Below are positions 4,315 to 4,607 of a stretch of 9,973 nucleotides of DNA, one piece after another. A program made the translations under genes and the position numbers. The notes below the pieces were generated by a model, which was not told the origin of the DNA, searched no databases, and saw nothing but the letters and a program-made list of their open reading frames with translations. The stretch comes from a virus (taxonomy: Duplodnaviria; Heunggongvirae; Uroviricota; Caudoviricetes): positions 1 through 9,973 of the IMG/VR virus record IMGVR_UViG_2645727991_000023, one strand, 5' to 3'. Positions within the stretch are counted from its first letter, which is position 1. Each line of letters starts with the position of its first letter.

Positions 4315-4515
4315 TTACTTCAGAAAGTCTCTGGTGAGTGCACCGAAGATATTGTCAACGATTTCGTCATCAAACTGCGAGGACTCATCTTCAGTTACAA
4401 GGTGACCACAATTTTTGCAGATGGCTCCCGCGAAACTGTCAGAGCCATGCGGTTTAAAGGATGTGTCAAAGACTTCGCCGCCACATTCTGGGCAAGAAAA
4501 CTTGATTGTATTCAT
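4315..4515 (-). CDS. Small Zn-ribbon protein (66 aa), antisense to the early-left operon
   Basis: ATG at 4515 (track start is TTG at 4521) with AGAGGA 8 nt upstream. Two CxxC pairs (CPECGG ... CKNCGH) and an acidic C-terminal tail. Candidate extended -10 (TGgTATCCT) on the minus strand at about 4549-4557. Competes with a GTG-initiated plus-strand ORF 4180..4536. Confidence 0.55.
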   Translation of the reverse strand: MNTIKFSCPECGGEVFDTSFKPHGSDSFAGAICKNCGHLVTEDESSQFDDEIVDNIFGALTRDFLK

Positions 4516-4607
4516 AACCAATTTCCTCTCGAGTAACAGACCCCTCAGAGGATACCACCTCGCCTGACGTGGTTAAAAGCAGGCAACGCTAACCACAAGG
4601 AGCCGAC

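Follow-up and report, generated by a model that had tools for sequence, protein, structure and literature searches.

Two proteins appear to be encoded by the same codons, read in opposite directions, in a compact segment (4237–4584) of a 9,973-nucleotide (nt) stretch of viral DNA, positions 1 to 9,973 of the IMG/VR record IMGVR_UViG_2645727991_000023 (hereafter, the window). The segment carries a minus-strand gene for a small zinc-ribbon protein (the Zn gene) that lies wholly inside a plus-strand gene (the plus gene), and it recurs as a unit in other prophages and phages. On the evidence of comparative sequence analysis, both strands are probably protein-coding. Taken as a whole, we lean towards describing the segment as a mobile two-strand cassette that encodes a reciprocally expressed functional pair; as to the parts of that description, we are slightly doubtful that expression of the two genes is reciprocal, and the suggestion that their products work together is a tentative one. 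The cassette comprises the following features.

4237–4536, plus strand: operon-sense gene of 99 amino acids, which fully contains the Zn gene, is codon-aligned with it and is open in relatives
4237–4314, plus strand: the first 26 codons of the plus gene (N-terminal), not shared with the Zn coding sequence (in the 3′ region of the Zn gene), with a coding signature in the plus frame
4315–4515, minus strand: Zn-ribbon gene of 66 amino acids, CxxC-N21-CxxC plus a C-terminal helix, with ATG at 4515–4513 and TAA at 4317–4315
4522–4530, minus strand: Shine–Dalgarno (SD) sequence of the Zn gene, GAGAGGAAA, with its AGGA core 8 nt before the ATG
4524–4552, minus strand: stem-loop, predicted by folding, in the 5′ untranslated region (UTR) of the predicted Zn mRNA, its 3′ arm ending in the SD sequence
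4549–4576, minus strand: candidate Zn promoter read from the sequence, with TTAACC (4576 to 4571), a 16-nt spacer and the extended −10 element TGgTATCCT (4557 to 4549)
4562–4584, no strand assigned: inverted repeat GCCTG-N13-CAGGC, the outer edge of the cassette as judged by conservation in relatives

The first-pass annotation of the window, made from its letters alone, had described a 66-amino-acid minus-strand open reading frame (ORF) with an SD sequence, two CxxC pairs and an acidic tail. All of these are present, and the ORF is a genuine gene under selection. An alternative upstream start (TTG at 4521) would lengthen the product to 68 amino acids. The cysteines pair as C8/C11 and C33/C36. 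The protein is hydrophilic and acidic, with an acidic tract (EDESSQFDDEIVDN) as its C-terminal third. The database search that the annotation had called for was run and matched the 66-amino-acid protein to NCBIfam NF047912, the ECs_2282 family (57.4 bits against a cutoff of 37, E = 1e-15; residues 4–59 on model positions 1–56 of 60). RefSeq places a coding sequence on the minus strand at the Zn gene, and names the E. coli copy an ECs_2282 family putative zinc-binding protein. A HMMER scan returned 68 clusters of stand-alone Zn proteins, mostly of 60–83 amino acids, and all four cysteines are invariant in an alignment of 43 diverse relatives. The AlphaFold2 model (predicted local distance difference test, pLDDT, 64.7) has a Zn ribbon followed by a helix at residues 42–59, and zinc binding is predicted.

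By sequence, then, the Zn gene belongs to a family that has been named but not characterised: the NF047912 entry consists of a name only, and we found no function, structure or literature on ECs2282. The first-pass annotation had suggested exclusion, conversion or anti-defence as possible roles; searches of PADLOC, Pfam, PHROGs, PDB and protein folds returned nothing specific. In PADLOC, the best match of the Zn protein (PDC-M14A, E = 0.0015) was not significant and the plus protein had no match. A profile search of genome contigs with the Zn alignment yielded just two spurious partial matches, and scans of viral sequences with distant Zn proteins gave no matches. One metagenome scan gave a false relative (L103), a long unrelated protein, and two of the alignments (A5 and A8) had diverged too far to be used in pattern scans. 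The window contains 75 ORFs of at least 40 amino acids, among which a 66-codon ORF is by itself unremarkable.

The overlapping plus-strand ORF at 4180–4536 that the first-pass annotation had listed exists. If read from GTG 4180 it has 118 amino acids; from ATG 4237, the conserved start, it has 99. The two frames are codon-aligned, every plus codon being the reverse complement of a minus codon. Plus proteins fall into phrog_21318, which includes the window ORF, and phrog_29546, both without an assigned function, and the AlphaFold2 model of the window protein (pLDDT 64.7) suggests a helix-hairpin/beta-hairpin protein of about 99 amino acids. The N-terminal extension beyond the overlap carries a motif that is common to both subfamilies of the cassette, L-x-[VI]-D-x-S-x-[IV]...K-R-[YF]-x-P. 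A GGAG-type SD sequence precedes the plus start in 12–13 of 15 lineages; it is the only conserved element upstream of the plus ORF, where there is no conserved promoter and the sequence beyond the SD is specific to each context. In two Citrobacter prophages (L005 4995–5519, minus strand, and L006), the plus-frame protein has 174 amino acids owing to an extra N-terminal domain (phrog_23433) with a second IDTSxxV-like motif, which suggests a duplicated or fused module.

Public records disagree on which strand is the gene. PGAP and RefSeq annotate the minus gene only, and the GenBank records of phages Evi and PPompW (118-amino-acid ORF, equivalent to window 4180–4536) and of the Klebsiella phages KP12 and ST974-OXA48phi18.2 annotate the plus gene only; PHROGs holds families for the proteins of both strands. 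The first-pass annotation had likewise expected only one of the two overlapping ORFs to be real. The comparisons set out below contradict that expectation, with conservation that supports the plus and minus frames alike across genera and contexts. It had also proposed that the strand conserved at synonymous sites should decide the matter, with support for the plus frame counting against the Zn gene; the plus frame is indeed supported, yet so is the minus frame, and the Zn gene is not refuted.

Relatives of the Zn gene for which DNA was available, 47 distinct alleles that reach down to 29–34% protein identity, were taken from Citrobacter, Klebsiella, Enterobacter and viral contigs. The DNA-level comparison spans about 20 lineages, every one of which has an open opposite frame; synonymous divergence among the lineages is high (pS, the proportion of synonymous differences, 0.5–0.7). 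In 47 of 47 alleles, no stop interrupts the aligned opposite frame over the full length of the Zn ORF. On one side this frame runs about 26–35 codons past the Zn stop, back to an ATG; on the other it closes at the Zn ATG or a few codons further on. When the Zn protein was held fixed and its codons were resampled, the probability that the aligned plus frame would be open was 0.02–0.20 per lineage; it was open in 15 of 15, and the codons TTA, CTA and TCA were seen in the Zn frame of these lineages only as the plus ORF’s own stop. The plus frame is also open in two remote metagenomic members, through most of the Zn ORF or its entirety.

The extension of the plus gene provides a separate line of evidence. 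Its ratio of non-synonymous to synonymous differences (pN/pS) is 0.37 (6 sequences), 0.43 (10 sequences, subfamily A) and 0.45 (8 sequences, subfamily B). Variation is in excess at third positions, and stops are absent from this frame but occur in all five others, in several or all sequences. Because this stretch lies outside the overlap, its coding signal is not a shadow of the Zn gene.

Within the overlap we used OLGenie-type ratios, in which the two letters denote non-synonymous (N) or synonymous (S) change in the Zn frame and in the plus frame, respectively. For the plus frame, dNN/dNS is 0.47 (bootstrap confidence interval (CI) 0.33–0.64) in subfamily A and 0.25 (0.13–0.43) in subfamily B; ten single-coding control genes from the same loci, each paired with a fake antisense frame, gave 0.58–1.28, all above the plus-frame values. 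Sites that are synonymous in the Zn frame evolve more slowly than those in control genes with a similar rate of non-synonymous change (dN). Variable columns are distributed over the three Zn codon positions as 29/14/39 and, in subfamily B, 33/8/34, so that positions 1 and 3 are near-symmetric; the counts for ordinary genes in the same prophages are 13/9/70 and 25/19/75. For the Zn frame, dNN/dSN is 0.23 (CI 0.15–0.35) and 0.19 (CI 0.09–0.35) in the two subfamilies.

A collection assembled by means of the Zn protein would be biased towards intact Zn genes, and we removed this ascertainment bias by searching with the plus protein alone, which led to six distant loci. All six have an intact Zn ORF with an ATG, both CxxC pairs and a stop. 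Given the plus protein only, the probability that the Zn frame would be open is 0.03–0.25 per lineage, and the probability that all of the cysteine codons would be kept, which need A at the third position of plus-frame Ala or Thr codons, is 0.002–0.012 per lineage. Our literature searches for ECs2282 and for the Zn/plus gene pair found no mention of dual coding.

The region upstream of the Zn gene is conserved together with it. An AGGA-type SD sequence is found at the same place in all lineages. The candidate extended −10 element that the first-pass annotation had proposed is present as the TGgTATCCT block, the end of which (4557) is exactly the end coordinate of that annotation. This candidate promoter block also stands upstream of the gene in other genera and accompanies the cassette into unrelated contexts, being conserved in most of those compared, with −35-like TTCACC or TTAACC and extended −10 TGgTATCTT or TGgTATCCT, and with TGaTATAAT in a remote member. 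A consensus promoter scan did not report the candidate. The predicted 5′-UTR stem occurs at the same place in all ten lineages that were folded, and its sequence differs between them (arms CCUCUGAG/CUCGAGAGG, UCUUGG/CCAAGA, GCUGG/CCAGC and CUCUGG/CCAGAG); a formal count of covarying pairs, made on an unrefined MAFFT alignment, gave no decision either way. In baseplate-context relatives, a strong terminator hairpin takes the place of the GCCTG-N13-CAGGC repeat at the cassette edge. A by-eye look upstream of the Zn gene showed no LexA box, and the idea of a LexA-controlled antirepressor was dropped.

Upstream of the plus gene, the cassette is joined to a region that resembles the left operon of a lambdoid phage.

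3953–3964 and 3978–3989, plus strand: two operator copies, TACCCATGGGTA and TACCTATGGGTA, with a palindromic motif that matches the motif of the cro/repressor intergenic region
3965–3993, plus strand: putative pL-like promoter, TTTACT (3965–3970), a 17-nt spacer and TATCCT (3988–3993), with hexamers read by eye, overlapping the operator pair
4000–4236, plus strand: early-left operon leader, which precedes the plus gene

The operator motif, TACC-N4-GGTA, has three copies in the cro/repressor intergenic region (3420–3431, 3444–3455 and 3459–3470) and two just 3′ of the repressor gene, at the positions listed; with up to one mismatch allowed, the window has 8 matches against 1.8 expected. Because the downstream operator pair overlaps TTTACT-17-TATCCT, we read 3965–3993 as a pL-like promoter of the dicBp type, which has been described in K-12 Qin (PMC10448788). 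The two operator copies back the first-pass claim that the Zn ORF is oriented against a pL operon, which would be under repressor control. Together the palindromes form a 16-bp hairpin with T-runs on either strand (3953–3989). This segment was first taken for a plain terminator and was later recognized as a pair of operator copies that fold into a hairpin as well; it may combine the role of OL operators with that of a terminator for both the repressor transcript and the minus-strand Zn transcript. For the latter it is the nearest candidate (3989–3953, minus-strand T-run), about 325 nt beyond the Zn stop. A motif scan of the window found no repressor operator near the Zn promoter.

Part of the leader (4000–4165), which is unannotated, is present at 85–99% identity in around 4,089 of 5,426 complete E. 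coli genomes, and in Rac it lies between racR and ydaG. Its 3′ end is a hairpin, CCCCAGCGTTAAGGGG, after CGCTA, which is also found upstream of ydfA in K-12 Qin. The structure of the leader as a whole is not unusual (z = +1.06).

The cassette itself is present in 835 of the 5,426 genomes (about 15%), at the head of the dicF/dicB operon; other E. coli genomes have ydfA-ydfB between the same flanks. The first-pass annotation had placed the Zn ORF where Qin has ydfB, and the site proves to be a variable slot that holds ydfA-ydfB in K-12 Qin. Related phages thus differ by presence or absence of the cassette at one site, which is one of the marks of a moron. Five kinds of context were recognized among the loci (L numbers) and phages compared.

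After a DicA-like repressor gene: the window and phage Evi
After an S24-type cI gene: L005–8, L011 and L098–101
Directly after cro: L009 and L010
In the pL region near exoVIII: L014
In myovirus baseplate operons, between the spike gene and a gp25-like gene, flanked by terminators: L096, L097 and L015

With the orientation of neighbours taken from called genes (a cruder ORF-based count of flanks was too noisy), the plus ORF shares its direction with one or both immediate neighbours in all five kinds of context, and with both at most loci; a single opposite-strand neighbour is present in L014, L097 and L099. In four baseplate copies (L080, L082, L096 and L097), which sit in a late tail operon, strong intrinsic terminator hairpins bracket the cassette on the operon-sense strand, an odd arrangement for a gene that is meant to rely on read-through of that operon. 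In L005, the cassette adjoins a probable nutL site because a boxA-like sequence (CGCTCTTTAACAA, operon-sense strand, about 4915–4935) sits just outside its edge.

Several readings compete with coding on both strands. If the Zn ORF were the sole gene, as in RefSeq, which annotates nothing else here, the plus ORF would be a shadow that stays open since the Zn gene avoids TTA, CTA and TCA. Of all frames, the aligned antisense one is most apt to be open by chance, the ratio of non-synonymous to synonymous rates (dN/dS) is lowest in the Zn frame (0.19–0.36 versus 0.29–0.75 in the plus frame), and single-nucleotide polymorphisms (SNPs) within E. coli give a pN/pS of 0.82 for the plus frame, all of which would fit. 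We nevertheless consider a lone Zn gene quite unlikely: the approximately 26 plus codons beyond the Zn stop have a coding signature in the plus frame only, complete with motif and SD, stop avoidance recurs in at least 15 lineages at the per-lineage probabilities given above, and both the dNN/dNS result, under all controls and in two subfamilies, and the slow Zn-synonymous sites set the overlap apart from single-coding genes. The converse, that the plus ORF is the only gene (as in the Evi and PPompW records) and the Zn ORF a by-product of its codons, could appeal to the greater length of the plus ORF, to its orientation, which is that of its neighbours, and to Zn nonsense alleles in E. coli prophages in which the plus ORF is intact. 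It is very unlikely in view of the four cysteine codons, which are invariant family-wide, including at loci found without any Zn sequence, of the conserved Zn start codon, SD and promoter block, of the dNN/dSN of 0.19–0.23 and of the curated hidden Markov model family NF047912. A third reading accepts translation of both frames and makes the minus-strand unit mainly a cis-antisense RNA or transcriptional roadblock that quiets a toxic dicF/dicB operon, with the Zn protein secondary. Here the Zn promoter does face the pL-like promoter head-on from about 560 nt away, its transcript would end at the T-run of the operator hairpin, and dicBp-type promoters turn on spontaneously, with toxic products (PMC10448788). 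Antisense action alone leaves the protein-level conservation of the Zn frame unexplained, however, and the cassette also occurs in baseplate operons without dicB; we regard this reading as unlikely.

Dual coding itself has observations to contend with. Both remote metagenomic relatives have plus ORFs with different ends, one of them without an obvious ATG. The codon-usage nulls depend on the usage table: genes of the window are high in TCA and TTA, so typical usage would raise the probability of an open frame. Nor can the per-lineage probabilities simply be multiplied, because the lineages share ancestry. The E. coli SNPs (Zn pN/pS 0.31), which are too few to judge the plus frame, do not alone set it apart from controls (NS/NN 1.9, like exo_C). 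In the window, the conserved start ATG 4237 has a weak SD, and the good SD serves GTG 4180, the 19 extra codons of which are poorly conserved. The structural models of the Zn and plus proteins are both mediocre at the pLDDT stated. Finally, natural knockouts of the Zn frame exist in E. coli prophages: E14* (ten IMG/VR loci, the L051 group), E44* and one frameshift, with L063 and L079 also carrying knockouts. E14* is a GAA to TAA change that replaces F by L in the plus frame and E44* is silent in that frame; only the frameshift hits the plus ORF. The plus gene can therefore persist without the Zn gene, because the E14* and E44* alleles leave it intact. Carriers of E14* have the RefSeq label ‘hypothetical protein’ rather than ECs_2282.

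For coding on both strands, the geometry can be read directly from the sequences; transcription, translation, reciprocity and partnership are what we infer from it. We envisage 4237–4584 as a compact accessory cassette that moves between temperate phages and would yield two proteins from the same codons in opposite directions. The Zn gene looks autonomous and the plus gene dependent on read-through, because the former has a conserved promoter/UTR block and the latter an SD only. The plus gene would be translated from whichever operon hosts the cassette, which in the window would be the repressor-controlled, pL-like (dicBF-type) operon. With repressor on the operators, in a lysogen or a cryptic prophage, pL would be off and the Zn promoter, having no operator, would alone be active; its transcript would head for pL and might stop at the operator hairpin. 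Once the operon is derepressed, transcription from around 4000 would cross the cassette and the plus protein would be made, while Zn expression would be damped by transcription collision and RNA pairing. Reciprocal expression is suggested because the two transcripts would be fully complementary and transcription convergent. The Zn protein might then be a lysogen-phase effector, and the plus protein its lytic-phase partner or antidote. In its fullest form, the proposal is of an old, horizontally mobile cassette of about 350 bp in which a self-transcribed Zn-ribbon lysogen effector and an operon-driven lytic partner or antidote form a functional pair; this we put forward as a possibility that we ourselves would not yet bet on. 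The cassette may also influence how the cell-division inhibitors dicF/dicB are expressed, because it heads their operon in some 15% of complete E. coli genomes.

The wider setting is a Qin/DicB-type lambdoid prophage of E. coli, and the 1,901-nt query that covers window 3400–5300 is 99.8% identical to NZ_CP024127. The genes around the cassette are listed here.

793–1539, minus strand: DnaC-like gene
1546–2634, minus strand: replisome organizer gene
2700–3125, minus strand: YdaT-like gene
3109–3390, minus strand: cro-like gene
3491–3910, plus strand: DicA-like repressor gene, without a peptidase domain
4608–4826, plus strand: ydfC
5168–5219, plus strand: DicF small RNA (Rfam RF00039, 75 bits), upstream of dicB as in Qin
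Downstream of DicF, plus strand: dicB, a ydfD-like gene, a frameshifted exonuclease gene, xis and int

The exonuclease gene (5864–8337) is split in the window into two overlapping ORFs, 5864–7738 and 7558–8337; we attribute this to a frameshift in the window copy because the 99.8%-identical reference has a single intact gene of 2,475 nt. A further small opposite-strand ORF within the same operon, in the gap between ydfC and dicF, encodes a hypothetical protein of 54 amino acids (4830–4994, minus strand) and is a RefSeq call in a near-identical record (L001 5931–6095).

Annotation pipelines treat long antisense gene overlaps as artefacts, and most of the reported bacterial cases are young and disputed. 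At this locus, on which public records disagree, comparative evidence indicates selection on both genes across genera and contexts. If confirmed, the pair would offer a small and clean genetic test case, as a stop in either frame can be silent in the other, and grounds for reconsidering the one-strand-only rules by which phage genomes are annotated; it would also be a candidate for a new way in which prophages couple lysogen-phase and lytic-phase functions. Were the full proposal true, the overlap itself would hard-wire the co-inheritance and mutually exclusive expression of the two proteins, a new architecture for self-immunity or for a two-state module, and the case would be among the best comparative examples of antisense dual coding in DNA genomes.

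Some known systems share parts of this arrangement. The sieB gene of Rac is found in the same pL region, with the conserved leader upstream of it and ydaG-ydaF in between, and is likewise oriented against the operon. In Rac, lambda and P22, sieB is a lysogen-expressed superinfection-exclusion gene of the pL region, and an exclusion role for the Zn gene could be proposed by analogy only. In P22, sieB holds a nested in-frame escape gene (esc), such that an exclusion gene and its antidote share DNA. That nesting is on the same strand and in frame, whereas the pair in the window is antisense, and the Zn protein has no sequence or family similarity to SieB, which is a membrane protein of about 160–190 amino acids (162 in Rac) and not a Zn ribbon. 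The slot of the cassette, between repressor/leader and ydfC, is filled in K-12 Qin by ydfA-ydfB, the first genes of the dicBF operon; they are unrelated in sequence and both lie on the operon strand, and Qin has no antisense gene.

Among small zinc-binding proteins, Lar/RalR (PF14354), Mu Com and YacG resemble the Zn protein in having about 60–70 amino acids, a C4 ribbon and a C-terminal tail; for Mu Com and YacG the likeness is a lead rather than a test. We gave up the Lar/RalR lead because the weak PF14354 matches in 7 of the 43 Zn relatives (best E = 2.8e-4, all below the gathering score) are no better than those to other ribbon families; the window protein itself has no match at E ≤ 0.1. 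Type I toxin–antitoxin systems are also a poor fit, given a hydrophilic, acidic Zn protein and an antisense strand that is itself protein-coding.

The closest parallel in frame relation is found in ambigrammatic narnaviruses. Their reverse ORF is an exact codon-by-codon complement of the forward one, kept open by avoidance of UUA, CUA and UCA. Narnaviruses are RNA viruses in which the codon-aligned reverse ORF spans the genome (bioRxiv 10.1101/2020.12.18.423567), whereas the pair described here occupies a mobile cassette of about 350 bp in double-stranded DNA temperate phages, has an SD on each ORF and includes a reverse ORF with a clear fold motif (four cysteines). In E. coli O157:H7 and Pseudomonas aeruginosa, antisense embedded genes for which selection was tested with OLGenie-type statistics have been described as evolutionarily young and taxonomically narrow (PMC9927249 and PMC8850804). 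The pair in the window, by contrast, persists across genera at identities as low as about 30%, in both subfamilies and in several contexts, and neither partner is a long-established host gene. The NF047912 family entry is silent on an opposite-strand gene; what sets the present case apart is a small, mobile and deeply conserved antisense pair in double-stranded DNA temperate phages.
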